A stretch of DNA of 32,000 nt from Candidatus Electrothrix yaqonensis (GCA_047651235.1 CP178758.1:2880001-2912000), one strand, 5' to 3'. Positions 6,089-32,000 are shown, counted from the stretch's first letter. Notes: generated by a model from the sequence alone, not told the origin. Translations and numbers: made by a program.

Positions 6089-6111
6089 AATCTGATTTGA
6101 TCCGGCCGGTG

Positions 6112-6699: not shown

Positions 6700-6757
6700 A
6701 ATGCAACCTCCTTACTTCTTTGTACGAATAATCTACTCTGCTTCGGTCAAAAACATC

Positions 6758-9945: not shown

Positions 9946-10280
9946 AGGTACCTCCTGAGCATCCTTATTGGTATATCTTTTCGATGAATTAACCGGATAC
10001 CTATATGGTATCATTTTTTGTACAGTATATACAAAAAATTTGCACGCATATTCGGTTCTCCGATGTTTTTTTATTATATCACGACATGCTGTGCCGGATG
10101 CAGAGGAAATGCTGTTTTTCCCGAACCTGCCGTCTGGTGCATCATCAGGCTGTGGATTTTTCCGGCTGCTGATTTTTTGTTTGCAAGGATCAGCCCGTTA
10201 TGCAAGACTTCTACAGCGTTTTTTCAGTCCTGTTCAACAGAGCAGCAGGGCCTTTTTTATGTACAGGGATATAGAATTCA

Positions 10281-15703: not shown

Positions 15704-16660
15704 CTACTTGGCTGGTTCCTCTTCTTCCTCTTCCTCGTAGGCGCCTATTTTCAGCCCTTTCTGCAGCTCCTCCAGGCCGGAATAGTCCAGCGGGTCGGAC
15801 CAGCCTGTACACTGCGCATCATCAGCAGCCCTGGCTCCTTTGGTCAGGTATTTGAGATATCTGGCCACCTTGTCTGCGGAATACGTATCAGTGGACGCTG
15901 TTCGGGCCAGCACCCATTCCGGATAGAGCGGCGTGGAGACGACAAAGGGAAATTCGGGATAGTGCTTCTGGGCAAGAATTTTTACATCCAGCATTTCAAT
16001 CTCCTCGTTTTCGGCCATTTTTTCCAGAACACCTGTGCGCACCGTGCCTGCATGAACCTGGCGGCTGAGGACGGCCCGGACCACCTTGGTATGGGTGTCG
16101 AAAAATCTGAGGGTGGAAAAATAGGTGAGCGCATTTATTCCGGCGTCGGCGAATTCCTTCTGGGCCATCTGCCAGCCTCCCAGGGAGTTTTTCTGGACCG
16201 CACCGAATTTCCTGCCTTTCAGGTCGGTCAGGTCAATGATATCTGTATTGGCTGCAGTAAAAATGACCCCGCCGAAGCTGTCCTGGCCGGACGACTGCAT
16301 GGTGGCCACAGGCACGGCAGCATAGCGCACTTTGGCTGTCACAAACAGAAAAGGATTAGCAATAAAAAAATCGACCTCGTCCTTTTCCACTGCGGGCAGA
16401 ACCTCGCCGAACTCCAGCGGCACGATGGAGAACGGGACATCAAGACTGGCCGTGAGGTACTCGGCAGTGGTATTCCACTGTTTCAGTGCATTCAGTTTCC
16501 CGTTTGCGGCAAGAACGCCGATGGTGATTTCCTGTTCCTTTTCGCCCTGTTCCCCGGCCTGGCAGAAACAGGCGGCAAAGACGAATATGACGGCTGCAAT
16601 GACCGTCGGAATTCTGTTGCACATGATGACCTCCGTGCTGGCTGTGAGTTGATACTGCAT
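15704..16660 (-). CDS. PhnD-like (phosphonate-bd fold) periplasmic substrate-binding protein with a poly-Glu tail
   Basis: A signal-like N-terminus (..IPTVIAAVIFVFAACFCQAG) is followed by ITIGVLAANGKLNALKQWNTTAEYL...VPLEFGEVLPAVEKDEVDFFIANPFLF, typical of PF12974-type binding proteins. The C-terminus is ..GAYEEEEEEEPAK. An alternative start at 16624 is possible. Confidence 0.7.
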   Translation of the reverse strand: MQYQLTASTEVIMCNRIPTVIAAVIFVFAACFCQAGEQGEKEQEITIGVLAANGKLNALKQWNTTAEYLTASLDVPFSIVPLEFGEVLPAVEKDEVDFFIANPFLFVTAKVRYAAVPVATMQSSGQDSFGGVIFTAANTDIIDLTDLKGRKFGAVQKNSLGGWQMAQKEFADAGINALTYFSTLRFFDTHTKVVRAVLSRQVHAGTVRTGVLEKMAENEEIEMLDVKILAQKHYPEFPFVVSTPLYPEWVLARTASTDTYSADKVARYLKYLTKGARAADDAQCTGWSDPLDYSGLEELQKGLKIGAYEEEEEEEPAK

Positions 16661-16968
16661 AGCAGATTAAAACGGATTAAACATATTATTTACGTAGTAT
16701 ACCCGCAGAGGCGTGAACAGCAAGGGGGATTTTCTGTTTCGGTGCGTATGGGATATATTTTTTAATTATTCAGATGCATTGTATGGGGGCTCCGCTGGTC
16801 CGGTCCGCTTCTGCCGGGCTGAAGGAAAAACAGAACTGAAAATAATAATTCTTCTCATGATACTGACAGGAGGTATGTTTTGAGAAGAGGAAAAGAGCAC
16901 ACCTTCGCATACTCTGTACCGAATTCGGAAAATAACAGATAAATCCGGTCAATCCGGTGAAAAAAAAT

Positions 16969-17000
16969 TGATTTCCGCTTTAGATATGCTATGTTAAAAT
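16969..17000 (+). promoter_or_regulatory. Possible extended -10 promoter upstream of the chemosensory cluster
   Basis: TGtTAAAAT at 16992-17000 (TGn + TAAAAT). TTGATT at 16969-16974 is poorly spaced (20 nt). The element lies about 120 nt upstream of the ATG at 17123. Confidence 0.25.
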
Positions 17001-17122
17001 GATAGTGTCGGAAAGTGCCGGAGTGACGGCGCCGTCCCGTTCCCGGCGAGCCTGAACAATATACCTGTTACCCGGTGGTGTTTCTGTAAATCCCCTTTTT
17101 TCATGTTTCAGTCGTCCGTCTC

Positions 17123-18928
17123 ATGTCTGATATATCAAAGATTCTTATCGTGGATGATGACCTGACCTTTGTCAGGGAATTGTGCGATGTCCTGTCGGCA
17201 TACAGTCAGTATGACGTACTGACTGCCACCAACCGGGGCGACGAGGTGTTTGCTCTGAAAAAAGAGAAGATAGCGGTTCTTGTTGTCGATTTGAGCGCCG
17301 GTAATCTCGATGTTCTTTTTCTGCTTTCTCTTGTCTCCACCTCGTACCGGCATGTCCAGTGTATTGTTATGCTCCGGGAGGAGCATCCTTCCGTGAAAGC
17401 AGTCCAGGACTGTTTTCTGAAAGATTCCATCTTTCTGTATCTTGTCAAACCGTCCAATTTGGAGACCATCGGCTGTGCCGTGCTCGAAGCGCTGCAGCGG
17501 CTGGATGAGAACGATTATACGCCCGGAATTTCTGCCGGAAAGATTGTTTCGTTTCTTGAGGCCCAGGAAAAGAGCTGTCAGGTTGTGGTCAAGTACGGCA
17601 GTAAAAAAGAGGGGATTCTTCATTTTGACCGCGGCATGCTGATCAATGCGTCCTGCGGCAATAAGCAGAGCGTGGAGGCGGCTCTGGAAATTTTTGAATG
17701 GCCACCTCTCGCTTTTACTGTTGAAGAGGCGGATAGGCAGGTTGAGCAGCGTCTGACCCTGAAAGATCTGAGAACCGTCCGGGTGACCTCGCGACTGAAA
17801 AGAGAGGCTGCCGACAAGCAGGCAGTCGGCAACGGCGGCAGTGTCTGCACTGTGAATGCTGCCGGGCAGAACATCAATCTGTTTATTGTCGATGACTCCA
17901 GAATGATGCGCAAGGTTATCGCCAATATTTTCAAGGATCATCAGGTAGTGAAGGTGGTCGGCGAGGCCGAGAACGGAGAAGAGGCCCTGCAGATCATTCC
18001 CCAGCTCAAGCCGGACGTGGTGACCCTTGATGTGGAAATGCCAGTCATGGACGGGCTGACCACCATCAAACACCTGATGATTCAGGCACCCACGCCCACA
18101 GTGATGCTCAGCGCCATGACCCTGGAAGGAGCTGATGTCACCTTTAATGCCCTCAAATACGGGGCTGTTGATTTTGTGGCCAAACCGTCCAACACCGGGG
18201 AGGTTGATCTGCAGGAACAGACCAGGGAAATTGAAAGAAAGGTGCGTCTGGCTGCAGAGGTCGAGATTGAGGCGGTCCGGTATGTCAGGGCGGTGAGTCA
18301 GGAAAAAAAAGACGCTCATGCCTCGGCCCTTGCCGGAAAAAAATGTGAACAGCTTGTTGCGGTCGGGGCGGCGGAAGGAGGCTACGGCGCGCTGCTCAAG
18401 CTGCTTCCTCACCTGTCGGCCCAGGTTCCGGCGGCCTACTTTGTCATGATGTACACTCCGTCCCGGCATCTGGATTCTTTTGTCCGCTATATGAATAAAT
18501 TGTCGCCCCTGATGATCCGGCGGGCCGAGCATAATGCGGTGGTGGAGGCCGGGGTCTGCTATTTTGCTTCGGGCGAGGAATACCTTACTGTGCATGAAGG
18601 TGACGGCGGCCTGGTGCTGCATGTTTCCAAAGCGCCCTTTGCCACCCGCAGAGGCTCGGTGGATATGCTGTTTTTTTCCGTGGCCGAGCGGGTGCGGGAA
18701 AAATCCCTGGCTGTTATTCTCTCCGGTATGGGCGAGGACGGCTCTGAAGGCATGGAGGAAATTCTCCGGGTCGGCGGTACCGGCATTGCCCAGGACCCGG
18801 CTGTGAGTCTGTACCGGGAGATGCCGGTGGCGGTATCTTCCCGTTGCCCCGAAGTAAAAGTTCTTTCCGATGCGGAGATTCCGAAAAAGATTGAAGAGGC
18901 GCTTGCCGGGCACACAGCTGCCTCGTAA
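17123..18928 (+). CDS. REC - DUF4388 (PATAN-like) - REC - CheB-like methylesterase-fold protein with a degenerate catalytic triad
   Basis: REC1: ILIVDDD..VLVVDLS..LVKPS. Then ..KSCQVVVKYGSKKEGILHFDRGMLINASCGNKQSVEAALEIFEWPPLAFTVEE (DUF4388 pattern G.i.f..G.l..A......G.eAl..i..W..g.F). REC2: LFIVDDSRMMRK..PDVVTLDVEMPVMDG..MLSA..DFVAKPS. In the CheB-fold domain, GASTGG is GAAEGG (Ser to Ala) and QHMP is MYTP (His to Tyr), while GMGEDG keeps the Asp. Confidence 0.85.
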   Translation: MSDISKILIVDDDLTFVRELCDVLSAYSQYDVLTATNRGDEVFALKKEKIAVLVVDLSAGNLDVLFLLSLVSTSYRHVQCIVMLREEHPSVKAVQDCFLKDSIFLYLVKPSNLETIGCAVLEALQRLDENDYTPGISAGKIVSFLEAQEKSCQVVVKYGSKKEGILHFDRGMLINASCGNKQSVEAALEIFEWPPLAFTVEEADRQVEQRLTLKDLRTVRVTSRLKREAADKQAVGNGGSVCTVNAAGQNINLFIVDDSRMMRKVIANIFKDHQVVKVVGEAENGEEALQIIPQLKPDVVTLDVEMPVMDGLTTIKHLMIQAPTPTVMLSAMTLEGADVTFNALKYGAVDFVAKPSNTGEVDLQEQTREIERKVRLAAEVEIEAVRYVRAVSQEKKDAHASALAGKKCEQLVAVGAAEGGYGALLKLLPHLSAQVPAAYFVMMYTPSRHLDSFVRYMNKLSPLMIRRAEHNAVVEAGVCYFASGEEYLTVHEGDGGLVLHVSKAPFATRRGSVDMLFFSVAERVREKSLAVILSGMGEDGSEGMEEILRVGGTGIAQDPAVSLYREMPVAVSSRCPEVKVLSDAEIPKKIEEALAGHTAAS

Positions 18929-19127
18929 GAAAAAAAACGACCGGCTGCGGTATTCGTTGTAATTAAATTAGACTGGAGCTATTTTATAGGGTAAAATTAG
19001 GAGATAAATATAAAAAAGCAGAAGGAGGTTGCAACATGTTTTTAGTGCGGCGGAAGCGGGCGCCGGGCGGGGCTGTGTGGGCCGACCCGACGGGACAAGG
19101 GAATTCCAGACAGGAGGAAAGAACAGT

Positions 19128-22100
19128 ATGAGAGGCCAAACAGGACAATTATCCAGAAAAGGATGGGGACTTCGGGCCAAGCTGGTTATGCTGCTGCTGC
19201 TCGTTGGTCTTATCCCCTTTCTGGCGAACGCGATTATTGACCAGCTGGCATCTGCCGACGCTCTGACGGCTCGTGCTCAAGCCCAGCTTGAGTCTATTCG
19301 TGAGATTAAGAAAAACCAGATCGCCTCTTATCTTGAGGAGCGTGCCGGTGATACTGTGGTGCTGGCCAGGATTATTCAGTCGCTCCGCCGGGAGGGTATT
19401 GCCAAGCTGAAAGCGATTGAGGGAACAAAAGTTTCGGCCATTCGGCGTTATTTCGGTAAACGTGTAGCCGATATTGCGGTGTCGGCCAAGAACCTCACCG
19501 CTGTCGCTGCCATCCAGGAGATGGAAGAAGCCTTTGAGGAGGAGGGAAAAAGGGTCGGCGGCAGTCTGTGGAACGGCTACAAGGAGAAGTACAGTGCCTG
19601 GTTCTCCGGATTCCGGGATGAGCACGGGTATTATGACGTATTTCTGATTGCGCAGGACGGTGATGTTGTCTACACCGTTGCCGAAGAAGCCGATCTGGGG
19701 CAGAATCTGGTCTCCGGTTCTCTGCGGGATTCAGGTCTGGGCAGGCTTTTCTCCAAGGTTATGAAGGAAGGAAAGGCTGTTATAGAGGACTATTCCTCCT
19801 ACGCCCCCTCAGGGGGAGAGCAAGCCTCCTTTATCGGAGCACCGGTTCAGGATGGCGGCAGAACAGTCGGCGTCCTGGCGATGCAGCTGTCTACAGAGGA
19901 AGTTAATCGTATTGTTCAGGAGCGTGAGGGGTTGACCAGTACCTTTGAGTCCTTTCTCATCGGTGGCGATGCGGGAAATATTAGCCTCCACAGCGACCGT
20001 ACAGTCAAGGAAGGTAAAATCGGCGACGCATATTCCGGCCCTGATGCTCAGGCTGCGCTGGATGGCAAGACGGGTATCCTCTATAAAGTCGGCCCGACTG
20101 GCCTCTTTGAGCTGTCTTCCTATACACCGGTTGACGTTGCCGGACTGCACTGGGGTATGCTGACCACAGGTGCGCTGACCGAAGTTGTTGTGCCCAAAGC
20201 GGAAGGAGAGGCGGACGACCTGCTGAAACAGTATCAGAAAGCCTACGGGTACTATGATATTTTTCTGTTTGATCCGACCGGCTACTGTTTTTATTCTGCA
20301 GAGAAGGAGGCTGATTACCATACCAATCTTCTCACCGGCAAGTACAGCGACACCAACCTCGGAACGGCGGTCAAAAAAGTGGTGGGCACCAGAAGAACGT
20401 CCATTGTTGATTATCAACTTTATGCGCCGTCCGGCGCACCGGCCTCTTTTCTGGCTTCTCCGGTTATAGAGGAAGGTGAACTCGTGGCAGTCGTGGGTGT
20501 GCAGATTGCAGACACGGATATTCAGGAGATTCTGGACGAAACAACCGGTCTGGGCAATACCGGTGAGACCTTTCTGGTCGGCTTCAGTGATTTTGTTCCC
20601 CGTTCCAATTCCAGGAAGGGTCTCAAACTCCTCCAGGACCAGGCTCTGAAAACCGAGCTGATTGATGCAACGTCGGAGACAGGTCAGGCGCAGATCAGGC
20701 GCGCTCCTGACTACGTCGGCGACGAGATTTTCGGTGCAGCGGTTCCGCTGGATTTGAAAAAGAAGCTGGGTGCCGACTTTGACTGGATTCTGATCGCCAA
20801 GATTGACACCAAGGAAGCTCTGGAGGCTGTTACCACAATCCGTAACCGTGCTATCGCTCTGGGTTTTGCGTTCATTGTCGTTGTTGCAGCTATTGCCTGG
20901 TTCGTCGGCGGGGCTTTTGCCCGGCCTATTGTTGCCATTGCCGAAGTTGTCCGTCAGGTTGCTGCGGAACGTGATCTGACGCTGGATGTTCCTGTGGCCT
21001 CCAAAGACGAAGTAGGACAAATGGCAGGCGAGTTCAACAACATGCTGCAAGAGCTGAACCAGGCGTTTACTGAGGTACAGACTGTATCCCAGGCTGTTGC
21101 CAAAAACGCCGAGGACGTGGCCGGACGTGCTTCCGCCAACAGGGATCGTGCTGAGGTCGAGGCCCGTCAGACCGAGAAAACCAGAGAGCTGCTGGAGACA
21201 ATGGGTGAGACAGCCGGTCAGGTTGCCGAGGGTGCTTCAGCCCAGCAGGCAAGTGCTCAGAAATCCCAGCAGACCATTGCCGAGCTCCTGAAATCTATGG
21301 ACACCGTGAGCGACGCTGTTATCAAACAGTCCGAAGAAGCTGAGACCGCTACTGACCGTGTGGGTGCGATGGGTGAAACCGGTGCTCTAGTTGTGGCCAC
21401 CTCTGCCGAGCAGGGTAAAACAGTTATGCAGGTGACCGCATCCATGAACGAGATCACTGCATCCGTACAGAACATGGGGCAGGCAGTAGAAGCAGCCACC
21501 TCCCAGGGTCAGGAAGCCCTGCAGGCTGCCAGTGACGGTAGGGCTGCTGTGGAAAACACGGTTGCCGGTATGCGCGCCATTGCAGAATCCTCCGGACAGA
21601 TCTCTGAAATCATTGGCGTTATTACAGAAATCGCCGAGCAGACCAACCTGCTTGCTCTGAACGCCGCCATTGAGGCTGCCCGTGCCGGTGCGCATGGTAA
21701 GGGTTTTGCGGTTGTTGCTGACGAGGTCGGTAAACTGGCCCAGCGTTCCTCTGAAGCTGCCAAGGAGATTACCCAGCTGATCAAGGATTCTACTTCCAAC
21801 GTTGAGGCAGGAACCAAGTATTCCGAAGAGCTGCAGAGCGCTCTGGCCAAGATTGATGCCAGCGGTCGTAACAACATGCGCTCCATTGAGGAGATCGCCT
21901 CTGTTGCCCAGGTCGTTGAAGCGGATATCCAGAATGTCCAGACCCTGGTTCAGGAACTGAACAAACTGGCCGAAGAAATCTCCAAGATGGCCGGTGAGCA
22001 GGGTGCCCGTCGTCAGGCTGCTGAGACAGCGCTGAGCTCCATGGTCCAGCAGTCCCAGATCATCAGTGCGCTGGTATCTGAAGCAAGTGCAGGTTCCAGC

Positions 22101-22325
22101 TCCATCGACACTGAGATGCGCGACATTGTGCAGCGTACTGACAGGCTGAACGAACTGGTTGCCTCCCAGAGGGAGCGTTCCCAGAATGCGGTTCAGATTG
22201 CTCAGCAATCCCAGGAGGGTGCCCAGAAAACAGTACAGGGAGCCGGTGTGGTCGTGTCCATTACCGACGATCTGCGGTCTGCTTCCGACAGGCTGCGTGA
22301 ACAGGTTGAGCAGTTCAAGCTGTAA
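19128..22325 (+). CDS. Methyl-accepting chemotaxis protein with a duplicated Cache-like periplasmic sensor, HAMP and a very long signalling domain
   Basis: The start was chosen at the ATG at 19128 (AGGAGGA RBS); the ORF track extends to 19029. TM1 is ..[19 protein letters not shown]. Two ~200-aa paralogous modules are present ([33 protein letters not shown].. and [32 protein letters not shown]..). TM2 and HAMP follow (P-x-x-x-[14 protein letters not shown]). The hairpin tip has the [38 protein letters not shown] signature. Confidence 0.9.
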
Positions 22326-22358
22326 GCCGGACCTGTTCTGTATTAGGCTTGTATAGCT

Positions 22359-22405
22359 GCATCACTCCGCGTGCTATTCGGTGTGTCCGGTGCGCGGGGT
22401 GATGC
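22359..22405 (+). terminator. Hairpin 34 nt after the MCP stop codon (possible weak terminator or attenuator)
   Basis: 13-bp stem GCATCACTCCGCG / CGCGGGGTGATGC (one G:U pair) with a 21-nt loop. It is followed by a T-rich but interrupted tract, GTTTCTGTCTGCTGTTCTG. Confidence 0.3.
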
Positions 22406-22522
22406 GTTTCTGTCTGCTGTTCTGCGGAAAACAGGTAAACAGCAGAAAACAAAGTACTCTGAAAAAAAACGGCTGACAGGGTCAGCCGGGTAACTGTATA
22501 TGCGGAATAAGGGGGAAAATTC

Positions 22523-23044
22523 ATGGCAGAGACATTTGCGGCTGACCGGGCCGAAAGAATAGCGGACCAGGATGAAAAAGAACAGCTTATGCAGCTGGTC
22601 GGCTTCACGATCGGCAGGGAACACTTCGGGGTTGATATTCTGATGGTCCAGGAGATTATCCGTTCCGCGCCGATTACTTCTGTGCCGAATTCACCGGATT
22701 TCATTGAAGGGGTTATCAATCTGCGCGGCAATATTATTCCGGTGATTGAGCTGAGAAAACGGTTGAACCTGTACAGGAAGGATATTGCGGCAAAGGATGC
22801 CTGGATACTGATTCTTGATATTAACAGCCGGGTGACCGGGTTTATTGTCGATTCCGTTACCAGGGTTCTGAAAATTATTGAAAGTACGATTGAACCGCCG
22901 CCTGAAGTCGTGGTGGCCGGACTGGGCAATCAGTACATCAAGGGTGTGTGCGATATCGGAGAAAATCTGCTGATTCTGCTTGACTTCAACCGTATTCTTC
23001 TTGCAGACGAGTTACAGCAGCTTAAGGCAATAAATGGGGAATAA
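22523..23044 (+). CDS. cheW: CheW coupling protein
   Basis: ..QLVGFTIGREHFGVDILMVQEIIRSAPITSVPNSPDFIEGVINLRGNIIPVIELRKRL... shows the canonical CheW-domain pattern. 173 aa. Confidence 0.9.
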   Translation: MAETFAADRAERIADQDEKEQLMQLVGFTIGREHFGVDILMVQEIIRSAPITSVPNSPDFIEGVINLRGNIIPVIELRKRLNLYRKDIAAKDAWILILDINSRVTGFIVDSVTRVLKIIESTIEPPPEVVVAGLGNQYIKGVCDIGENLLILLDFNRILLADELQQLKAINGE

Positions 23045-23048
23045 TCAG

Positions 23049-23414
23049 ATGAGTAAGCGAGTTCTGATAGTCGATGATTCATCCATGATGCGCAAGATGA
23101 TCGCAAAGCTGCTGCAGCCGCCGGGTCATATTGTTGTCGGCCAGGCAAAAAATGGCATTGAGGCCATTGAAATGTATAAATCGCTGCAGCCCGATATTGT
23201 CACCATGGATATCACCATGCGCGAGATGGACGGACTTGCCGCAGCAAAGGAAATTTTACAGTATGACAGCTCGGCGCATATCATTTTTCTTTCCAATCTT
23301 GATGAGGATATCTATCGGGAAGAGGTGGAGCGTCTCGGTGCCATGGGGTTTGCCAGCAAGCATAAGGCGAGAGAAATCCTTGAGATGATAGAACCGTCTG
23401 AAGGTGGTGCGTAA
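23049..23414 (+). CDS. cheY: CheY-like single-domain response regulator
   Basis: MSKRVLIVDDSSMMRKMI...PDIVTMDITMREMDG...IIFLSN...GFASKHK. The acidic pocket, the phospho-acceptor Asp and Ser/Lys positions are present. An alternative start at 23034 overlaps the cheW stop. Confidence 0.85.
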   Translation: MSKRVLIVDDSSMMRKMIAKLLQPPGHIVVGQAKNGIEAIEMYKSLQPDIVTMDITMREMDGLAAAKEILQYDSSAHIIFLSNLDEDIYREEVERLGAMGFASKHKAREILEMIEPSEGGA

Positions 23415-23611
23415 CTTCCGGCTTTTGTGCACTATGAACGGCTTGTGTCCTTTGCCGTTTTTCGGAAAATATCCGGCCTGATGTCTGCAGCGGTCTTAGG
23501 GGTTGCTGTGCGGCTGCGTATGAGGGTGCCGGAAAAATTTTGCGGACAGTTGACCGGGAGGCGGTTTCGGCGGGGCACCATAAAAGATCATCTTAAAACG
23601 GGTTTTCGCCT

Positions 23612-24244
23612 ATGTCTACTTTATTTCAGGTAGCAGATGATGTAAGTCTGAAGACCAGGACACAATTTTTCTTTATGCTTACAATCTTGCTAACCGCGAT
23701 TGCGGCAGCCGGTCTTCTGTATGAATATGTCAGTCGCGGCCCGGAGGCGGGAAGTATTGTTGTCAGTTCCGTCATGCTTGTCATCATCTTTTTGCTGGGA
23801 GTGCAGATTGCCGCCATGATGTATTGGATGCGCAGCATTATGCAGCCGCTGGCTGAGGTGGGAGCAGCGACACGGTTGATGGCGGACGGGCATCTTGAAA
23901 CCTTTAATCAGATCAGACAGGCAGATGAAATCGGTCTGCTGGGCGAGAATATTAATGATCTGGCGGTCAATATGCAGGAGGTGCTCCTTTTTATCTGGAA
24001 CCACAGCCAGATGAGTCGTGAGTTGCTGGAGCATATAGCCGGAGAACTGAACGTTACCCTGGAAGACGTTGCCCCGGAGCCGGAACAGCTCTCTGCTGGA
24101 ATACAGAAGTATCTTCTTGAAATGTACCGGAATAATGAGGATCTCAGATCCATCGTGCTGTCATTCAGTTATTTTGAAATCAAGCTGGAAAATGAAAAAA
24201 TGGTTTCTGATTATGAACAGGAAACCGGAGTGAGCGTTTCGTGA
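23612..24244 (+). CDS. Small membrane protein: 2 TM helices + HAMP domain, no recognisable sensor or output domain
   Basis: TM1 is FFFMLTILLTAIAAAGLLYEYV and TM2 is IVVSSVMLVIIFLLGVQIAAMMYWM, with only about 8 residues between them. HAMP-like region: RSIMQPLAEVGAATRLMADGHLETFNQIRQADEIGLLGENINDLAVNMQEVL. An uncharacterised ~90-aa acidic tail follows. Confidence 0.65.
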   Translation: MSTLFQVADDVSLKTRTQFFFMLTILLTAIAAAGLLYEYVSRGPEAGSIVVSSVMLVIIFLLGVQIAAMMYWMRSIMQPLAEVGAATRLMADGHLETFNQIRQADEIGLLGENINDLAVNMQEVLLFIWNHSQMSRELLEHIAGELNVTLEDVAPEPEQLSAGIQKYLLEMYRNNEDLRSIVLSFSYFEIKLENEKMVSDYEQETGVSVS

Positions 24245-24434
24245 ACCTCGTGAACCGGACAGGATGGCATTTCCGCATCGGATTTCAATATGCTCCGGTG
24301 CCCCTGCAGGCAATTATAGGAAAGATATACAGAAAAGAACCTGATCAGGTGAATCAGGTGAGCGGATTGCAGCGGAAACTGATTCCGGAACCTTTAACCA
24401 AATAAACGGGCAGACTCTTGATAAGGTGGCAAAT

Positions 24435-27400
24435 ATGATTGATTCATCAATGTTACCGGATTTTATTGTTGAGGCGGCTGAACATCTCGAAGAGATGGAA
24501 AGCAGTCTTCTCCGGCTTGAACAAGATCATGAAGATAAAGAGGTGCTGGATGATATTTTCCGTTCGATTCATACCATCAAGGGAGCTGCTCAGTTTGTCG
24601 GCATTGAGCGGGTTTCTGAACTTTCCCATAAACTTGAGAATCTGCTTGATCTGCTCCGCAGGGATGAACTCGATCTGACCGGCAATGTAACAGATCTGCT
24701 CATTGCCGGAAAAGATAGGATAGCGCTGCTGGTTGATGAGCTTGAGCGTACACAGGCTGAGGAAACGGAAGTTGATGATCTGGTGGAACAGATAAAAAAT
24801 ATTGTTGAAGGCGATGCTGCGGACCCTGCAGATACTGCGGATGCCGCTGAGGTACCTGACGAGGCGGTCCCGACCGCAGATGATCCGGAGACTGTGCTCT
24901 CGGAAGAACCCCGTCAGGGGAGCCTTGCCGAGGAGAGCATGGCTGATGAATACGACGAGGAACTCTACAATATTTTTCTCCAGCAGCTGAAGGAAAATAT
25001 ACCCTTTCTCTATGCCCAGACCGTAGAACTGTCCATTTCGGTGGACAAGCAGGACGTCCTGTACCGGTGTAAAGATTCTATCAAGAGTCTCAAGTCCTCA
25101 GCCAACTACATGGGGTATGAAAAGCTGACCCAGCATTACTCCAACTGGCAGCGTGCCATTGATCAGGCCGTGGAACAGCTTTCCGGCGGGAAGATGCCTG
25201 ATCTCGGATTTATGCAGGATTATCTGGATGAGGTGATCCGTTCATTCCCGCAGGCTATGGAAGGGTATTCCCAAGAGGATGCGGAGGAGGATAAGGATGC
25301 TGTAGCAGGAAATATCGGTGCGTCCATTGATACAGAGCTTGATTCCATCTTTGCCGACGATGATGAACCTATTGCAGGGGTTGACGGAACGGGTGATGAA
25401 ACACTATCTACGATAGAAGAAACAGCTGATTGGGAAACGGAGGATGAGGAAGAACAAGGGATCGATCTGGATAAGGCCCTTGATTCTATTTTTGCTGGCG
25501 GACCGGAAGATTCGGGAGAGGATACGTCTGAGGCGGTTGGTGATGATGCCAAAATTTCGGGTGATGAAGGGATTTCTCCGCCCGAAAGCGGCAGAACGGA
25601 CAGGGAAATTATTTCTGACGGGACAGTTCCGCCGCTGGAATACGAGATCTCTGGAGATGAGTATGACGAAGAACTTATTTCTATTTTTCTGAAAAAATTA
25701 CAAACGGATACCCATTATATCCTAGGTCAGCTGAAAGATATCGGGTCCGGTGCTGATAAGCAGGCGGTTCTTGAACGCTGCGGAGATGCTGTCGGTCGGT
25801 TGGGAGCGTCAGCCAATTATATGGAGTATATTGGCCTGACAGCCTATTGTGATGTATGGCAGCAGACCATTGCTGACGAGCTGGTCGGATTATCCGGGGG
25901 AGATGAGCCTGATTTCAGCACCATGCAGGAATTCATCGATAAGGTTCTTCAAGTGTATCCCCAGATAGCGGAAACAAACGAAGACAGCAGTCCGGAAGAA
26001 GAGCTGCAGACTGCTGCGGATATCGCGGATGAAGAGAAGGTTGCGGAGACGACCGGAGCGGCGGAAAGTGCGGAAGAACAGGCTGCCGAAAAAGGGGAAC
26101 CTGACTCGGACGACTCAGACGGAGATGCTGATACCGAAAGTGAAGAAAGTAAAGCGCTTTTTGACAAACTGAGCAGCGCTCTTGACAGCGCCGAATACGG
26201 GGACAGTGTATCTTCTGATGAGGGGATGAACAGTGTTATCGGCGAAATGATAGACGTATCCGACCGGGAGGACGGAGAGCAGGCTGCAGCAGGCGGATCA
26301 GAACCTGAAGCCGATGCAGCTGTTTCTGCCGATGATGACAGCATAACACCTGAACAGCCTGAAAAGAAAGCGGAAAGAGCGGATTTGCTGGAGCAGGTTA
26401 TCGGTGAAGAAGTCGGAGACACCGGTATCACGGATGATGCCGAAGAGGATGAGTCAACACTGCAGGAGGAATCGGACGATATTGATGCTGAGGCGGAACC
26501 GGAATACGAAGCGGATCAGGTGGAGACACAGCAGCGCGGGAAAACGGAAAGTCCGGCAAGGAGGTCGCTTGCCCGAAGCAGCATCAGAGTGGATGCCGAG
26601 AAGATTGACTATCTGATGAATCAGGTCGGTGAACTGGTCGTCAGTCGAGCCTATTTTGCCCAGCTTGTCAACGAGATGCGTGGTCTGCAGCAGCAGCTCC
26701 TGGAAAACTCCGACATTTCGAAGGCGCAGCTCAAACCCCTGCAGGAATTTTCCTTCCGACTGAGTGAGGCCGGTGTCCATCTCGGTCGCGTGTCCAACGA
26801 GCTGCAGGAAGGCGTGATGAAGGTCAGGATGCTGCCCATTGATCAGCTTTTCAAGCGGTATCCGCGTCTGGTTCGGGATTTAATACATAAGACGGACAAG
26901 GACGTCAGACTTGTGACAAAAGGAGAGGAAACAGAGCTGGATAAAATGGTCATTGAGTCCATTTCCGACCCTCTGATTCATATTATCCGGAATGCTGTTG
27001 ATCACGGTATTGAAAGCATGTCGGAACGTCGGCGGGCAGGAAAGCCGGAACAGGGTACGCTTATTCTGGAAGCGTTTCATGAGAGTGACCATATTGTTGT
27101 GGAAATCACTGATGACGGCAGAGGACTTGATACAAAACGCATCAAAGCCAAGGCATTGCAGAAGGGGCTGATCCGTAAGGAGGAGCTGAAGCGGCTGTCT
27201 GAGCTGGAGCTGACCCGTCTGATTATGCTGCCCGGCTTCAGTACTGCGGAAACGACGACTGAAACCTCCGGCCGGGGGGTCGGGATGGATGTGGTCAAGA
27301 AGAATATCGAAAAACTGAACGGAACCGTTGAAATAGTTTCCGAGGCAGGCAAGGGAACCCGGCTGCGGATTAAAATTCCGCTGACTATGGCGATTATCCA

Positions 27401-27899
27401 GGCCCTGATGGTGCGGGTAGGAACAGAGAAGTTTACCATTCCCCTGACTACGGTAGAAGAGACTCTGCGCGTTTTTCGTGATGAGATATCGGAGATAGAG
27501 GGGGTTGATGTTATTCATCTCCGTGACACTACAATGCCTATTTTTCAGCTCTCCAAAATATACAATATTAATCGGCTCTCCCAGGATGAGGACAAAATGT
27601 TTGTGGTGGTGGTGAGTACAGGAACCCAGGAGCTGGGGCTGGTGGTCGATGAACTGCTCGGTCAGGAGGAGGTGGTCATCAAACCGCTTGCCGATTATCT
27701 GCGAGTGGAAAGCGGCTTCGGCGGAGCAACGATTCTGGGTGACGGTGGTATTTCTCTCATTCTGGATATACCGGAACTGGTCAAGATTGCCAAGGATGAT
27801 CAGGCAACTAAACAGGTGGAGCGTTCTCTACGATACAGACGGAAGAAAAAACGCATTGATTTGGAAAAGGAGGAACAGGAGGAGCAGGCGGCTCAGTAA
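24435..27899 (+). CDS. cheA: CheA histidine kinase, expanded (1154 aa from the ATG at 24435) with one Hpt, two His-less Hpt-like repeats and long acidic linkers
   Basis: Hpt: ..LDDIFRSIHTIKGAAQFVG... Dimerisation region: IRVDAEKIDYLMNQVGELVVSRAYF. HATPase: DPLIHIIRNAVDHGIE, EITDDGRGLD, GRGVGMDVVKKNIEKLNGTVEIVSEAGKGTRLRIKIPLT. The CheW-like P5 domain is at the C-terminus. The ORF track's GTG start at 24426 is also possible. Confidence 0.9.
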   Translation: MIDSSMLPDFIVEAAEHLEEMESSLLRLEQDHEDKEVLDDIFRSIHTIKGAAQFVGIERVSELSHKLENLLDLLRRDELDLTGNVTDLLIAGKDRIALLVDELERTQAEETEVDDLVEQIKNIVEGDAADPADTADAAEVPDEAVPTADDPETVLSEEPRQGSLAEESMADEYDEELYNIFLQQLKENIPFLYAQTVELSISVDKQDVLYRCKDSIKSLKSSANYMGYEKLTQHYSNWQRAIDQAVEQLSGGKMPDLGFMQDYLDEVIRSFPQAMEGYSQEDAEEDKDAVAGNIGASIDTELDSIFADDDEPIAGVDGTGDETLSTIEETADWETEDEEEQGIDLDKALDSIFAGGPEDSGEDTSEAVGDDAKISGDEGISPPESGRTDREIISDGTVPPLEYEISGDEYDEELISIFLKKLQTDTHYILGQLKDIGSGADKQAVLERCGDAVGRLGASANYMEYIGLTAYCDVWQQTIADELVGLSGGDEPDFSTMQEFIDKVLQVYPQIAETNEDSSPEEELQTAADIADEEKVAETTGAAESAEEQAAEKGEPDSDDSDGDADTESEESKALFDKLSSALDSAEYGDSVSSDEGMNSVIGEMIDVSDREDGEQAAAGGSEPEADAAVSADDDSITPEQPEKKAERADLLEQVIGEEVGDTGITDDAEEDESTLQEESDDIDAEAEPEYEADQVETQQRGKTESPARRSLARSSIRVDAEKIDYLMNQVGELVVSRAYFAQLVNEMRGLQQQLLENSDISKAQLKPLQEFSFRLSEAGVHLGRVSNELQEGVMKVRMLPIDQLFKRYPRLVRDLIHKTDKDVRLVTKGEETELDKMVIESISDPLIHIIRNAVDHGIESMSERRRAGKPEQGTLILEAFHESDHIVVEITDDGRGLDTKRIKAKALQKGLIRKEELKRLSELELTRLIMLPGFSTAETTTETSGRGVGMDVVKKNIEKLNGTVEIVSEAGKGTRLRIKIPLTMAIIQALMVRVGTEKFTIPLTTVEETLRVFRDEISEIEGVDVIHLRDTTMPIFQLSKIYNINRLSQDEDKMFVVVVSTGTQELGLVVDELLGQEEVVIKPLADYLRVESGFGGATILGDGGISLILDIPELVKIAKDDQATKQVERSLRYRRKKKRIDLEKEEQEEQAAQ
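24945..25253 (+). repeat. CheA internal repeat A (His-less Hpt-like module, 103 codons)
   Basis: DEYDEELYNIFLQQLKEN...RCKDSIKSLKSSANYMGYEKLTQHY...DLGFMQDYLDEVIRSFPQ. It is paralogous to 25656-25964 at both the DNA and protein level. Confidence 0.8.
25656..25964 (+). repeat. CheA internal repeat B (His-less Hpt-like module, 103 codons)
   Basis: DEYDEELISIFLKKLQTD...RCGDAVGRLGASANYMEYIGLTAYC...DFSTMQEFIDKVLQVYPQ. Same length as repeat A, offset by 711 nt. Confidence 0.8.
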
Positions 27900-28008
27900 G
27901 GAGGTAACCGAGACGGGCACACAGCAGATAATTCAGGGAGTTGGACGGCCAGGGCAGCGGAGTCATAAAATAACGTGGAGATTCCTGGGGGAGGGGGGAA
28001 GCTGCGGC

Positions 28009-29046
28009 ATGGAGAGAAAAATAAGGGTTCTTGTAGTTGATGATGCCACTTTTATGACCAAGGCGATCAGTGATCTGCTGGAAACAGATTCTGATATCGA
28101 AGTGGTCGGAGTCGCCAATAACGGATTGGAAGGACTGGAAAAGATCAGGGAGCTGCAGCCGGATGTCATTACCCTGGATATTGATATGCCTGTCATGGAC
28201 GGTCTGCAGGCAGTCCGCCATATTATGATTGAATCTCCGGTTCCCATTGTTGTCCTCAGTTCTTTGTTCAGTGACGGGTCCATTACTTTTGATGCCCTGC
28301 GGCTTGGTGTGGTTGATTTTGTCGCCAAGCCGTCCGGGGCGATATCAAGTGATATTCATACGGCCAAGCAGCATATCATCGACCGGATCAAACTGGCTGC
28401 TTCGGTGAATTTTCAGAATATCCGCCGGGTCCGGGTCAACCGGCGGAACAAACAGGAAAGTATTGCCGATCTGTACGGTTTTCATCCGCTGGACTATCTC
28501 ATTGCGGTGGGAACCTCGCTCACCGGACCCAACACCTTTATCCGTCTGATGACCAGGGTGACAGCAGGCCTTCCTGCTGCCGCTGTTATTCTGCTGGAGA
28601 TCGCCCCGAAAATTCTTCCTGCTTTTGTTGAAAAATTCAATGAGTTTGTGCTCTGGAAGATTGAACTCGCCCAGGAAGGTAAGGTTCTGGAACAGGGAGT
28701 CTGCTATATTCAGTCCAATATGGTTTCTCTGACGATAGGACTGAACAGTAACGGTGATCCCTGTTTTCAGCTTGGTGATCGGGTTGACAATCCTCTGGAT
28801 ACGTTTTTTCTTTCTGCTGCCGAGGTGTTCCGGGAGAATACAGTGGGTGTGCTGCTTACCGGCTATGGAGATGACGGGTCTGTTGGTTTTGCCGGGATCC
28901 AGGAAAAAGCCGGGAAGACCATTGCCCAGAGTGTGGACAGCTGCGTGTATCCTAACCTGACGGATATGGCGATAAAACGCAATAAAGTGGATCTGATTGT
29001 GGAGGAAAGCAAACTTGCCGAGGCTATTGAGTCAGTTATCAGATAA
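28009..29046 (+). CDS. REC + CheB-like methylesterase-fold protein lacking the catalytic His
   Basis: The start was chosen at MERKIRVLVVDDATFM (G-rich RBS). The ORF track's start at 27649 overlaps cheA and is rejected. REC: PDVITLDIDMPVMDG..VVLSS..DFVAKPS. In the esterase fold, GTSLTG keeps the Ser and GYGDDG keeps the Asp, but the QHMP position reads EIAP (His to Ile). Confidence 0.85.
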   Translation: MERKIRVLVVDDATFMTKAISDLLETDSDIEVVGVANNGLEGLEKIRELQPDVITLDIDMPVMDGLQAVRHIMIESPVPIVVLSSLFSDGSITFDALRLGVVDFVAKPSGAISSDIHTAKQHIIDRIKLAASVNFQNIRRVRVNRRNKQESIADLYGFHPLDYLIAVGTSLTGPNTFIRLMTRVTAGLPAAAVILLEIAPKILPAFVEKFNEFVLWKIELAQEGKVLEQGVCYIQSNMVSLTIGLNSNGDPCFQLGDRVDNPLDTFFLSAAEVFRENTVGVLLTGYGDDGSVGFAGIQEKAGKTIAQSVDSCVYPNLTDMAIKRNKVDLIVEESKLAEAIESVIR

Positions 29047-29129
29047 CTGAATTAACTGCCGGATAAGTAGCTGAGCTACCGCACCCATAACGTAATTACC
29101 GTAAAATCGGCAGGTTTCACGTTGAGAGG

Positions 29130-29149
29130 ACTGTCACCTAACTGTCACC
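29130..29149 (+). repeat. Tandem direct repeat ACTGTCACC (x2, 11-bp register) just upstream of the ParA-like gene
   Basis: ACTGTCACC occurs at 29130-29138 and 29141-29149, 21 nt upstream of the ATG at 29170. Confidence 0.3.
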
Positions 29150-29169
29150 GGGTCTGATAGGGATGCATT

Positions 29170-30081
29170 ATGATCATTACATGCGAAAATTGTAAAACCA
29201 GATATAAGGTTGCTGAGGAGATCATTACCAAACCGGCATTCAAGGTGCGGTGTCATAAATGCAACCACAGGTTTATAATCTATAAATCGGAACCTGCCGA
29301 TGATTCTTTTCTCCTCCGGGATGAAGTACATCCTGATGATAACCGGATTATAGCGCTGAGCAATCAGAAAGGAGGGGTGGCAAAAACAACCACCTGTCTG
29401 AATCTGGGAGGGGCATTGGCTCAGATGGGAAAAAAAGTACTGCTGATTGATTTTGATGTGCAGGCCAACCTGACCATGCTGCTCGGGTTCAGGAAAACCC
29501 GTTCATTTTATGAGGTACTGAATAGAGAAGTCAAGGCGATCAATGAGGTTATTCTGCATACAAAATTTCCCAATATATCGGTTCTCCCCTCAAACAGCAG
29601 GATGGCGCTGCTGAAGAAAAGGTATCTGACCCAGCATAATTTCGAATATCTGCTCAGGGATAAACTGGAAGCGGTAAAGGACAGTTATGATCATATTCTG
29701 ATCGATACGCCGCCGTCCATCGAGTTTTTTACCCTGAATGCCCTGATGGCCTCCGGCCTTGTTATCGTGCCGACCACCTGTGAATATCTTGCCATGCACG
29801 GAGTCGGTCAGATCAATGATGTTGTCAAGGTGCTGCGCGGTATTGATCATGATATCGGCTGTAAGGTGCTGATTACCATGTATGACGTGAAAAAAACATC
29901 TGAAAAGGTTATCCACGAGAAAATACGCCGGAAATACGGAGATATCCTCTGCAAAACGGTTATTGAGCTGGATGACAAAATTCAGGAATCGCATATCGTC
30001 AATCTGCCGATCCGTTATTATGCCGAGAAAAGCAGATCAGCTGTTCAGTATCAGGCTCTGGCGCAGGAAATTGTCGGATAA
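29170..30081 (+). CDS. MJ0042-type zinc ribbon fused to a ParA/MinD-family (deviant Walker A) ATPase
   Basis: MIITCENCKTRYKVAEEIITKPAFKVRCHKCNHRFIIY (CxxC...CxxC ribbon) is followed by IIALSNQKGGVAKTTTCLNLGGALAQMGKKVLLIDFDVQANLT (KGGxxKT deviant Walker A) and ILIDTPPS (Walker B-like). Confidence 0.85.
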   Translation: MIITCENCKTRYKVAEEIITKPAFKVRCHKCNHRFIIYKSEPADDSFLLRDEVHPDDNRIIALSNQKGGVAKTTTCLNLGGALAQMGKKVLLIDFDVQANLTMLLGFRKTRSFYEVLNREVKAINEVILHTKFPNISVLPSNSRMALLKKRYLTQHNFEYLLRDKLEAVKDSYDHILIDTPPSIEFFTLNALMASGLVIVPTTCEYLAMHGVGQINDVVKVLRGIDHDIGCKVLITMYDVKKTSEKVIHEKIRRKYGDILCKTVIELDDKIQESHIVNLPIRYYAEKSRSAVQYQALAQEIVG

Positions 30082-30120: not shown

Positions 30121-30900
30121 ATGAAAACAGAGGCACATTCCAGGCTGACACAAAGCATTGCCCCGGTTCTGTCCTTCACCGTCCTAGTTCTGGTCTGGGA
30201 ACTTGTCGTCCGTTTTAGCGGCTGGGATACAAATGTTCTGCCCGGACCGTACAAAGTCCTGGAGAGCATGATTGAACTGATCGCCAACGGGTCCATGTTC
30301 AAGCATACTGTGGCCAGCCTGTTCAGAGTAACGTGGGGATTTTATATTGCCGCGATACTGGGTATTCCCTTGGGAATTGTTCTGGGAAGAAGTCAGGTTG
30401 CTGCCATGCTGCTGAATCCGATTATTCATTTTCTGCGTCCCATCTCTCCGCTCGCCTGGATACCGCTGGCCATGCTCTGGTTCGGAATCGGTGACCAGCC
30501 TGCTGTTTTCCTGATCTTTCTCGCCAGCTTTTTCCCCATTGTCGTCTCCACCACTGTTGCGGTGCATTCCATCAATCCCACCTATTTTTATGTTGCCGCC
30601 AATTTTAATTTCAGCAGACAGGAGGTAATTCAGAAAATAGTTATTCCGGCCATTATTCCGGATATTATTACAGCACTGCGGCTGACCGTCACCATTGCCT
30701 GGATTGTGGTGGTTGCTGCCGAGATGATTGCGGTTCAGTCCGGACTCGGATATCTGATTCTTGATTCGCGGAACGGACTGCGTCTGGATTACGTTATGGA
30801 CGGAATGATTATTATCGGCCTGATCGGCCTGTATCTCGATTATATTATGCGCCGTCTCGGCAGGATCGAGTCTGCATCCTGGGGCATCCAGCAGGCATAG
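30121..30900 (+). CDS. ABC transporter permease (NitT/TauT - SsuC/TauC type)
   Basis: 259 aa, polytopic and hydrophobic. The EAA-like region ..AANFNFSRQEVIQKIVIPAIIPDIITALRL.. is typical of BPD_transp_1 permeases of the nitrate/sulfonate/taurine family. Confidence 0.8.
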   Translation: MKTEAHSRLTQSIAPVLSFTVLVLVWELVVRFSGWDTNVLPGPYKVLESMIELIANGSMFKHTVASLFRVTWGFYIAAILGIPLGIVLGRSQVAAMLLNPIIHFLRPISPLAWIPLAMLWFGIGDQPAVFLIFLASFFPIVVSTTVAVHSINPTYFYVAANFNFSRQEVIQKIVIPAIIPDIITALRLTVTIAWIVVVAAEMIAVQSGLGYLILDSRNGLRLDYVMDGMIIIGLIGLYLDYIMRRLGRIESASWGIQQA

Positions 30901-31717: not shown

Positions 31718-32000
31718 GACCGTGAAAAAGAAGTTTGTCTGGTCAAGAACTTTAAGGTTTGTTGTAGGCAGTATTGTCTGGGCTGCACTCATCTCCGGGT
31801 TGCATTGGTGGCTGAATTTTGATCATGGTCATCAGAAGATTGTTAAAATGGGCTACATGCCCGTTATCACCAATATGGCGGCACCGCTGCTGGACCATGT
31901 CAGCACGAAGGACAGTGATGTCCGATTCAAAGCCCTGAAGTTCAGTTCATTTGCTGAAATGGCCGAGGCGCTTCGGAATGACGAGATTCAGGTAGCGTTC
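31707..32000 (+). CDS. Probable membrane-anchored NMT1/SsuA-like substrate-binding protein (5' part; runs off the window)
   Basis: The ATG at 31707 overlaps the ATPase stop by 11 nt. Sequence: MLSETVKKKFVWSRTLRFVVGSIVWAALISGL (anchor), then ..KIVKMGYMPVITNMAAPLL...FKALKFSSFAEMAEALRNDEIQVAF, typical of the first beta-alpha unit of NitT/TauT binding proteins. Open to the window end. Confidence 0.6.
   Translation, partial: MLSETVKKKFVWSRTLRFVVGSIVWAALISGLHWWLNFDHGHQKIVKMGYMPVITNMAAPLLDHVSTKDSDVRFKALKFSSFAEMAEALRNDEIQVAF

Follow-up and report, generated by a model that had tools for sequence, protein, structure and literature searches.

A chemosensory gene cluster of the cable bacterium Candidatus Electrothrix yaqonensis was analysed within a 32,000-nucleotide stretch of its genome (CP178758.1:2880001-2912000), referred to here as the window; coordinates are those of the whole window unless a locus identifier is attached. 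Open reading frames (ORFs) were listed and searched against the Pfam and NCBIfam profiles. The original prediction, an earlier reading of this DNA, had placed eight co-directional genes on the plus strand at 17123-30081. The ORF listing bears out these coordinates, and the profile searches bear out the domains. However, position 30081 is not the end of the cluster, as had been supposed: co-directional genes for an ATP-binding cassette (ABC) permease, its ATPase and a binding protein follow, and the series continues past the window. Of a chemosensory module of ~15 co-directional genes, the window contains the 5' two-thirds. The module encodes CheB-like proteins with replaced active-site residues, and no CheR was found in it. 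The genes of the module that lie within the window are the following.

17123-18928, plus strand: g1, the first CheB-like protein (family 1), comprising a divergent receiver domain (REC1, 17123-17506), a PATAN/DUF4388 domain (17528-17758), a second receiver (REC2, 17870-18208) and a CheB-like domain (18344-18907); Pfam
19029-22325, plus strand: g2, a transmembrane methyl-accepting chemotaxis protein (MCP) with a dCache-type sensor, a HAMP domain (20904-21062) and a signalling domain, hairpin tip near 21690; Pfam
22523-23044, plus strand: g3, CheW; Pfam CheW, E = 1.5e-35
23034-23414, plus strand: g4, a single-domain CheY that keeps the equivalents of D12/D13/D57/S87/K109; Pfam and alignment
23612-24244, plus strand: g5, a HAMP-domain protein (Pfam HAMP, E = 1.7e-6) that has two transmembrane segments and no output domain
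24426-27899, plus strand: g6, CheA, 1157 residues; Pfam
28009-29046, plus strand: g7, the second CheB-like protein (family 2), comprising a receiver (28009-28362) and a CheB-like domain (28498-29028); Pfam
29170-30081, plus strand: g8, an MJ0042-type zinc ribbon (29170-29274) joined to a ParA/MinD ATPase; Pfam and NCBIfam
30121-30900, plus strand: ABC importer permease of the NitT/TauT family; Pfam BPD_transp_1, NCBIfam SaoP/NtrB/TauC-like
30923-31717, plus strand: ABC importer ATPase; Pfam and NCBIfam
31707-32000, plus strand: 5' end of the gene for an SsuA/NMT1-type substrate-binding protein (343 residues in full), continuing beyond the window

The start of g7 was set at 28009, and the ORF start at 27649 was discounted: from 28009, the gene encodes 345 residues that match a Ca. 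Electrothrix sp. YB6 protein with 100% identity. The true start of the MCP gene is probably 19128. The remainder of the module was read from an independent assembly (locus L091), which is identical to the window over 13,992 nucleotides and reaches 7 kb beyond its end. On the same strand (L091:12113-17982, importer included), this assembly encodes a PilZ protein, a second transmembrane HAMP protein, a TauE/TSUP permease and a 464-residue PATAN-REC-CheB-like protein.

The Pfam family CheB_methylest (PF01339) matches g1 over profile positions 1-174 of 174 (E = 9e-38) and g7 over its full length (E = 2e-30). The two proteins were aligned with HMMER to the solved CheB structures 1A2O and 6YMZ (E values of 1e-39 to 1e-47) and with MAFFT to E. 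coli CheB taken from NC_000913, and the two methods agree except in the g7 column of His190. The Ser and His of the catalytic triad had been read as replaced in the first CheB-like domain, and the His in the second; the formal alignments give the same result. In g1, Ser164 is replaced by Ala417 and Thr165 by Glu418 (GAAEGG, 18365-18382, plus strand, where CheB has GASTGG), and His190 is replaced by Tyr444 (MMYTP, 18446-18460, plus strand), with a semi-conserved His449 located five residues further on. Asp286 is kept as Asp539 (GMGEDG, 18725-18742, plus strand), inside an invariant D-G-x-E-G. In g7, Ser170 occupies the nucleophile position (GTSLTG, 28510-28527, plus strand), His190 is replaced by Glu197 in the MAFFT alignment or by Ile198 in the HMMER alignment (LLEIAP, 28591-28608, plus strand), and Asp286 is kept as Asp289 (GYGDDG, 28861-28878, plus strand). 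Both proteins score below the NCBIfam CheB cutoff (NF001965, 293 bits), g1 with 290.7 bits and g7 with 243.4 bits.

An AlphaFold model of g1, computed from a 120-sequence alignment, has a mean predicted local distance difference test (pLDDT) score of 89.5. Foldseek comparison with CheB catalytic domains yields a template modelling (TM) score of 0.90 and a root-mean-square deviation of 1.9 Å for 3SFT, and a TM score of 0.87 for 1CHD; comparison with the full-length CheB structures 1A2O and 6YMZ yields TM scores of 0.77-0.80. Because the model superposes on CheB with TM scores of 0.77-0.90, g1 is predicted to keep both the CheB fold and the way in which receiver and catalytic domain pack together. 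A model of g7 based on a 14-sequence alignment was set aside, with a pLDDT of 62 overall and below 50 in the active-site region.

The replacements recur throughout the database relatives of the two proteins. All 119 of 119 relatives of g1 have G-A-[A/S/G]-E-G-G and D-G-x-E-G, and their residue in place of His190 is either Tyr or His; Glu418 is at least 90% conserved within the family. All 120 of 120 relatives of g7 have G-T-[S/T/N]-L-x-G-P-N and an acidic residue followed by Ile, within [E/D]I[S/A]P, in place of the CheB Gln-His; Asp286, the Asp of the DG motif, is invariant among them, and no position of their catalytic domain carries an invariant His. The triads were also tabulated, counting full triad columns only, from phmmer annotation of 80 returned loci (one genome per GTDB species) and nine metagenome loci. 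At the positions of Ser164, His190 and Asp286, in that order, the residues are as follows.

Family 1 (54 sequences): AYD 28, AHD 11, SYD 7, SHD 3, others 5
Family 2 (87 sequences): TED 36, SED 33, NED 9, TDD 7, SDD 1, TES 1
Family 3 (the PATAN-REC-CheB-like proteins, 29 sequences): mostly G-S/T-G, the triad gone altogether

The equivalent of Asp286 is present in all family-1 sequences and in 86 of 87 of family 2, and a Ser-His-Asp triad is retained in only 3-4 members of family 1. The nucleophile position is occupied by Ala, Ser, Gly or His in family 1 and by Ser, Thr or Asn in family 2, a variation to be expected at a position for binding and not for catalysis; the Asn found in 9 of the 87 family-2 sequences argues in the same direction. 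The receiver residues corresponding to D12/D13/D57/S87/K109 are present in REC2 of g1, in g4 and in g7. In family 2, the receiver residues D10, D11, D56 and S84 are invariant, and the receiver residues are conserved in family 1 as well. Judged by these residues, the module encodes four to five phosphorylatable receivers.

The closest relatives of g1 are found in Ca. Electrothrix (73-94% identity) and Ca. Electronema (65-67%). Over a longer distance, the CheB-like C-terminal domains of cable bacteria and Gammaproteobacteria share 46-55% identity and only 24-27% with E. coli CheB, and family-2 proteins of cable bacteria and Competibacteraceae are 60-62% identical. Judging from these patterns, the CheB-like domains are under clear constraint, and the substitutions define conserved families and not decay. 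An artefact of sequencing or assembly was rejected as the source of the substitutions, since the independent assembly is identical and the orthologues share them. It is very improbable that the CheB-like genes are functionless, decaying relics of a canonical system. The loss of catalytic residues and the sub-cutoff scores of both proteins are what such relics would exhibit, but the ORFs are intact and of full length in more than 80 species and carry family-specific invariant motifs, the family-2 proteins keep at least 60% identity across phyla, and the predicted CheB-like fold is a confident one.

g1 and g7 fall outside the canonical CheB enzyme family: they depart from it at two of its three catalytic residues, they miss the curated score threshold, and no partner CheR was found in the loci searched. 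Public annotation names both families "chemotaxis protein CheB" or "protein-glutamate methylesterase". The CheB or methylesterase label is probably wrong in functional terms. A conserved CheB pseudoenzyme family, the ABC-linked module and a che operon of cable bacteria are undescribed in the literature searched, although prior mention in cable-bacterium genome papers is possible.

An alternative explanation for the same active sites is that the CheB-like proteins are still hydrolases with a rewired site, composed of Ser170, Glu197 and Asp289 in g7 and of Cys479, His449 and Asp539 in g1, and act as receptor glutamine deamidases or on another substrate. Canonical CheB also deamidates, an activity that needs no CheR, and Ser-Glu-Asp triads catalyse hydrolysis in other folds. 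The Ser-Glu-Asp of g7 is kept in all its cable-bacterium orthologues; the invariance of the Asp286 equivalent in families 1 and 2, the highly conserved surroundings of the cleft and the few Ser-His-Asp members of family 1 fit this alternative too. So do two further residues of g1, Cys479, which is located at the position of CheB A225 and is 90-100% conserved across all three families (near-invariant in family 1), and the His at +5 from the His190 position, present in 76-90% of family 1. However, the varying nucleophile position would be unexpected for a catalytic residue, and the receptors are not enriched in Glu/Gln-pair consensus sites. In the AlphaFold model, Cys479 is the second residue of its strand and His449 lies in the first turn of a helix. 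Both look structural in this model, Cys479 in particular because the same Cys persists in the fully degenerate family 3 despite the loss of Asp286. Triad residues at alternative nearby positions had been named as a finding that would overturn the original prediction, and the answer given here to that condition comes from sequence and conservation. Residual hydrolysis by g7 is possible, since Ser170, Glu197 and Asp289 are retained, but for the CheB-like proteins in general the hydrolase explanation is judged unlikely.

A phmmer search with E. coli CheR against ~6,300 ORFs in ~1.6 Mb (the window and ~88 related loci) yielded no match at E < 1e-4. The same query identifies the CheR proteins of B. 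subtilis (5e-30) and Pseudomonas (CheR1, 1e-35) in the Protein Data Bank (PDB), and is therefore sensitive enough. Likewise, the CheR Pfam families are absent from the called genes of the ten loci that have gene tables, L091 among them. The original prediction had listed CheR, CheD, CheC, CheZ and CheV as missing from the window. This stands for CheR, CheZ and CheV, whereas for CheD and CheC it means that they are not among the Pfam matches of the scanned ORFs, no dedicated query having been made. A cheR gene just outside the window had been named as another such finding; in this genome, none was detected in the 17 kb that precede the cluster or in the 9 kb that follow it.

The receptors were searched for strict matches to the methylation consensus [ASTG]2-x2-[EQ]2-x2-[ASTG]2 and compared with shuffled sequences. 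The cytoplasmic domain of the g2 MCP has 0 strict sites (0.43 in shuffles), whereas E. coli Tar has 4, at its known sites (0.18 in shuffles). All cable-bacterium orthologues of the MCP have 0 strict sites. In total, 34 of 50 cluster MCPs lack strict sites and the remaining 16 of 50 have 1-2. The apparent lack of methylation and demethylation chemistry that had been proposed is supported in part: there is no CheR near the cluster, consensus sites are missing and the triads are altered, but g7, with its Ser-Glu-Asp, may keep some hydrolysis.

These data also bear on the possibility that an unlinked CheR, perhaps with a canonical CheB, is encoded elsewhere and still serves the receptor, the cluster CheB-like proteins being accessory. 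Orphan cheR genes are common in Deltaproteobacteria, with 5-10 in Geobacter species (PMC2577667), and the 16 MCPs with strict sites fit this possibility. The negative search applies to the cluster loci, so that a cheR elsewhere in the 3.7-Mb genome is possible. On the other hand, no related locus in either of two phyla carries one, and the site counts of the cable-bacterium MCPs are at or below the expectation from shuffling. There is only a small chance that this explanation is the correct one.

The MCP-CheW-CheA-CheY core of the module is intact, with the signalling domain of the MCP, CheW, the Hpt (with its His), P3, P4 and P5 domains of CheA, and the acceptor Asp of CheY. The g2 MCP has two transmembrane segments that flank a dCache-type periplasmic region of ~530 residues. 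The two arms that flank the tip of its cytoplasmic hairpin measure exactly 210 residues, or 30 heptads, each, and a C-terminal arm of 210 residues is found in 20 of 50 orthologous MCPs. The arms of E. coli receptors contain 18 heptads, and the 30-heptad arms predict unusually tall arrays. Of 53 related loci, 21, mainly from Desulfobacterota, have a gene for a transmembrane HAMP protein of the g5 type on the upstream side of the anchor gene. The domains of the CheA protein are arranged as follows.

24450-24746, plus strand: Hpt domain with His49
24921-25310, plus strand: His-less Hpt-like repeat, residues 166-295
25626-26015, plus strand: His-less Hpt-like repeat, residues 401-530
26016-26570, plus strand: acidic linker of 185 residues, rich in Asp, Glu, Ala and Ser
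26577-26825, plus strand: P3
26967-27386, plus strand: P4
27399-27785, plus strand: P5

Pfam identified neither a P2 domain nor a C-terminal receiver in this CheA. The two repeats are 40% identical to one another (E = 7e-31), with Lys or Gly in place of the phospho-acceptor His. Their direct match to the Pfam Hpt family is weak (E = 0.13 for one and none for the other), and the CheA proteins of the relatives have multiple annotated Hpt domains. The His-less repeats and the acidic linker recall the His-less Hpt domains of ChpA and FimL. CheA proteins of chemosensory class F4 are all described as having three Hpt domains, a tentative pointer to the class of this module. The supplements of a paper on CheA architectures (PMC10782961) include none of the taxa considered here.

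The module is not confined to this genome. As judged from the sequences of related loci, it is widespread and horizontally shared, with carriers in at least 80 species from two groups, the Desulfobacterota and the Gammaproteobacteria. The consensus gene order is REC-PATAN or REC-x, CheB-like of family 1, (MCP), CheW, CheY, (transmembrane HAMP), CheA, (PATAN-REC-CheB-like of family 3), CheB-like of family 2, ParA, (transmembrane HAMP), ABC permease, ABC ATPase and substrate-binding protein. Among the loci with enough flanking sequence to be counted for each component, CheA is present in 56/59, CheW in 51/53, CheY in 52/53, the family-1 CheB-like protein in 47/53 and the MCP in 39/53. ParA lies directly 3' of the family-2 gene in 57/76. 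Its representative here, g8, has an intact deviant Walker A motif (KGGVAKT, residues 67-73, at 29368-29388) and matches Pfam AAA_31 (5e-52) and CbiA.

Carriers among the Desulfobacterota include cable bacteria and other Desulfobulbaceae, Desulfurivibrionaceae, numerous Desulfobacterales (Desulfatitalea, with the cultured D. alkaliphila, Desulfosarcinaceae and Desulfococcaceae) and Syntrophobacteraceae. The gliding, filamentous Desulfonema magnum has both CheB-like proteins, ParA and the ABC genes. Gammaproteobacterial carriers include Competibacter, Contendobacter, Methylococcales, Chromatiaceae and Thiohalomonadaceae. Between the two phyla, CheW proteins are 57-67% identical, the CheA core 60-65% and the ABC permease 61-71%; the equal similarity of Che and transporter proteins indicates that the whole module moved as a unit. 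A Competibacteraceae-type cluster (61% identity) in a metagenome-assembled genome labelled "Synechococcaceae cyanobacterium SM1_2_3" (L026, JAAUTD010000135.1) probably reflects contamination during binning and not its presence in a cyanobacterium. Outside the cable bacteria, the nearest Desulfobulbaceae loci have a gene for an 811-residue MCP with a hemerythrin domain, DcrH-like and a candidate oxygen sensor, which divergently adjoins the cluster on the minus strand (L006:5510-7945 and L007:6062-8497).

The ABC importer is complete, with a BPD_transp_1 permease, an ATPase and an SsuA/NMT1-type binding protein, all of which score below the equivalog cutoffs. Its permease gene starts 39 bp after g8. 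The permease and ATPase follow the cluster in 45/57 loci, the substrate-binding protein in 41/54, and TauE is found in 30 loci. This tight linkage raises the possibility of a function other than motility, in which the pathway, by way of the SsuA/TauA-type importer and TauE, senses a sulfur-containing or related anion or regulates its uptake and export. The transporter genes are as conserved between phyla as CheW and CheA, and the carriers are mostly sulfur-cycling bacteria, both of which favour such a role. However, the PATAN, PilZ and MglA/MglB-like genes indicate pili or polarity, and the most distant cluster, that of the Syntrophobacteraceae, has MglA/B and lacks both the ABC transporter and ParA; because of this cluster, the transporter appears to be a later addition. 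A transport function in place of motility is thus considered improbable, and the two readings are not mutually exclusive.

It had been suggested that the output differs from that of flagellar chemotaxis and may be type IV pili or gliding. The recurrence of PATAN, the downstream PilZ gene, the flanking MglA/MglB-like genes and the literature on PATAN all make this suggestion more likely. In cable bacteria the REC-PATAN and REC-CheB-like parts of g1 are fused, while in the nearest non-cable relatives they are encoded by separate adjoining genes. PATAN-REC-CheB-like fusions recur across loci, and the E. gigas orthologue of the downstream protein (L082) scores 56.5 bits for DUF4388. Genes for an MglA-like Ras GTPase and an MglB-like Roadblock/LC7 protein flank the cluster in the Desulfatitalea-type and Syntrophobacteraceae loci (L008:15567-16642, L009, L027, L028, L034, L035, L041, L045, L074 and L088-L090), and the Desulfatitalea-type loci also have PilZ proteins and a second ParA. 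The PATAN domain binds PilB1 and PilC, as demonstrated for Synechocystis regulators, and MglA/MglB homologues are frequent neighbours of PATAN genes (bioRxiv 10.1101/2021.06.11.447907). Cable bacteria glide, reverse and exhibit oxygen taxis, with a suspected role for type IV pili (PMC12449579, PMC12163305, PMC10580974).

Taken together, the module may constitute a methylation-independent pathway in which phosphorylatable pseudo-CheB proteins bind their targets without modifying them and PATAN relays the signal to type IV pili or to the machinery of polarity. When canonical CheB is phosphorylated, its substrate cleft becomes accessible (the mechanism of 1A2O). By analogy, CheA would phosphorylate CheY and the receivers of the CheB-like proteins, and phosphorylation would expose a CheB-like cleft that binds without hydrolysing, its likely target being the signalling bundle of the receptor or another array component. 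The outcome would be a stoichiometric, methylation-independent feedback, a phospho-dependent tethering of the fused PATAN module, or both, and the extra receivers might in addition drain phosphate as sinks. The PATAN domains fused or adjacent to the pseudo-CheB proteins would then pass the output on to the machinery, of type IV pili or of polarity, behind gliding and its reversals. The positioning of the arrays would fall to ParA, and the importer linked to the cluster may, together with TauE, supply the solute that is sensed or report on it.

Several observations weigh against this scheme. The window is devoid of pil genes, and several host lineages (Competibacter, Methylococcales) are not known to glide. 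The DUF4388 match of g1 is borderline: with the cutoff at 25, the whole protein reaches 24.4 bits and the N-terminal fragment 26.8 bits. In addition, the REC-PATAN order of g1 is the reverse of the PATAN-REC order of PatA-type proteins. The linkage of the importer and TauE could signify a transport or metabolic output. The near-invariant Cys and the conserved His of family 1, the Ser-Glu-Asp of g7 with its potential for hydrolysis, and the room for a cheR elsewhere in the genome, all described above, count on the same side, and receptor binding, phosphotransfer and the output partner are all inferred from sequence. The scheme as a whole is accordingly given about an even chance of being correct. 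Its descriptive part is held with high confidence and the specific binding-and-tethering mechanism with much less. Overall, the pathway probably adapts and signals in a manner unlike textbook chemotaxis.

In bacterial chemosensory pathways, adaptation is regarded as relying near-universally on the reversible methylation of receptors by CheR and CheB, and a module that keeps two or three CheB folds with rebuilt sites and no CheR in the cluster provides a natural test of the roles that the CheB fold may have besides catalysis. It also suggests itself as a candidate controller of cable-bacterium gliding and oxygen taxis, and the linked ABC importer, TauE and ParA give rise to testable predictions on transport-coupled sensing and array positioning. 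In a more elaborate version, dead, phospho-gated CheB paralogues would make up a methylation-independent device for adaptation and tethering, clamping onto the array or letting go of it without modification. Their fused PATAN domains would physically link the pilus or polarity machinery to tall arrays positioned by ParA and to the ABC importer inherited with the module. This is a tentative proposal, judged less likely than not as a whole. If true, it would represent a previously unrecognised design principle of chemosensory feedback, and in cable bacteria and other sediment bacteria the module would have both gliding and oxygen or sulfide taxis under its control.

The surroundings of the cluster were also inspected. 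A periplasmic binding protein related to PhnD and to the TtrS sensor (Pfam Phosphonate-bd, 3e-41; NCBIfam TtrS sensor region and PhnD family) is encoded on the minus strand at 15704-16660, divergent from the cluster. It is not found upstream of the Ca. E. laxa cluster, and its membership in the chemosensory system is uncertain. Scans for promoters and terminators across the cluster were uninformative, with 17 terminator-like sites where 13.2 were expected. The GC skew is markedly and persistently positive (0.1-0.2) over 16000-30000, where all cluster genes are on the plus strand, which fits replication co-orientation or a strong transcription-strand bias. A 592-residue antisense ORF (17135-18913, minus strand) lies opposite nearly all of g1; there is no evidence for a gene here, and a shadow ORF is the probable explanation. 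Another antisense ORF, of 413 residues, lies opposite the MCP gene (19809-21050).

Further upstream, two transposases (729-1766, DDE_Tnp_1; 3294-3938, DDE_Tnp_4) adjoin three TerD genes, one of them fused to HSDR_N_2, and a VWA gene (4236-7342). The G+C content of this region is 0.46-0.49, compared with 0.50-0.55 in the che region, and it may be a mobile island. A Fic-family gene appears to be split into two overlapping frames (DUF4172, 12705-12977; Fic, 12923-13420), probably through a sequencing error or because it is a frameshifted pseudogene. The products of 9451-10014 and 10281-10844, a protein of the cytochrome P460 family and a putative Se/S-carrier protein, may bear on the nitrogen or sulfur chemistry of cable bacteria. 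The remaining genes of the window also include an OmpR-type regulator, a HEAT-repeat protein and a CN-hydrolase fusion.

The constituents of the module have counterparts in several known systems. The CheB-like proteins share with canonical CheB (1A2O, 1CHD, 3SFT, 6YMZ) the combination of a receiver with CheB_methylest, the fold, the inter-domain arrangement, the receiver residues and Asp286. They differ in the replacement of Ser164, His190 or both, the lack of a partner CheR, the sub-cutoff scores and, for g1, the extra REC-PATAN. ParC of Vibrio and PpfA of R. sphaeroides are ParA-like ATPases of che clusters that position chemoreceptor arrays. Like them, g8 belongs to a che cluster and is a ParA/MinD-type ATPase whose Walker A motif is deviant, a likeness by description, whereas its N-terminal MJ0042-type zinc ribbon and the membrane-bound receptor set it apart. 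The Frz and Dif systems of Myxococcus xanthus resemble the proposed pathway in the chemosensory control of gliding or pilus reversals, and MglA/MglB-like genes occur near the clusters of the relatives. Frz uses FrzF (a CheR) and FrzG (a CheB), whereas Dif has been described as CheR-independent (PMC2577667), and neither has pseudo-CheB proteins, PATAN fusions or a linked ABC importer.

The P. aeruginosa Pil-Chp system, of the Tfp class (ChpA, PilG/H/I/J/K, ChpB), likewise has several receivers, and the presumed pilus output is common to both. Its CheA has extra Hpt-type domains, some of them His-less (PMC10782961), which the two Hpt-like repeats of g6 may parallel. In contrast to the present cluster, which is not adjacent to pil genes in the window, it has a CheR (PilK), a catalytic ChpB and a C-terminal receiver in ChpA. 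A precedent for the retention of catalytically dead chemosensory domains is found in R. sphaeroides CheA3, which has His-less Hpt domains and a dead kinase domain (PMC10782961), although in a CheA and not in a CheB. The Tax, Pix and Hmp systems of cyanobacteria have an MCP-CheW-CheA core, CheY and a PATAN regulator but no CheR, and, as with the cable bacteria, their hosts are gliding filaments or otherwise surface-motile. They possess no CheB-like proteins and have the PATAN-REC order, whereas the module described here has REC-PATAN-REC-CheB-like, ParA and an ABC importer. Judged by these likenesses, the module would work most like the PatA-type pilus pathways of cyanobacteria that lack CheR and CheB, with Pil-Chp and Frz similar in logic.

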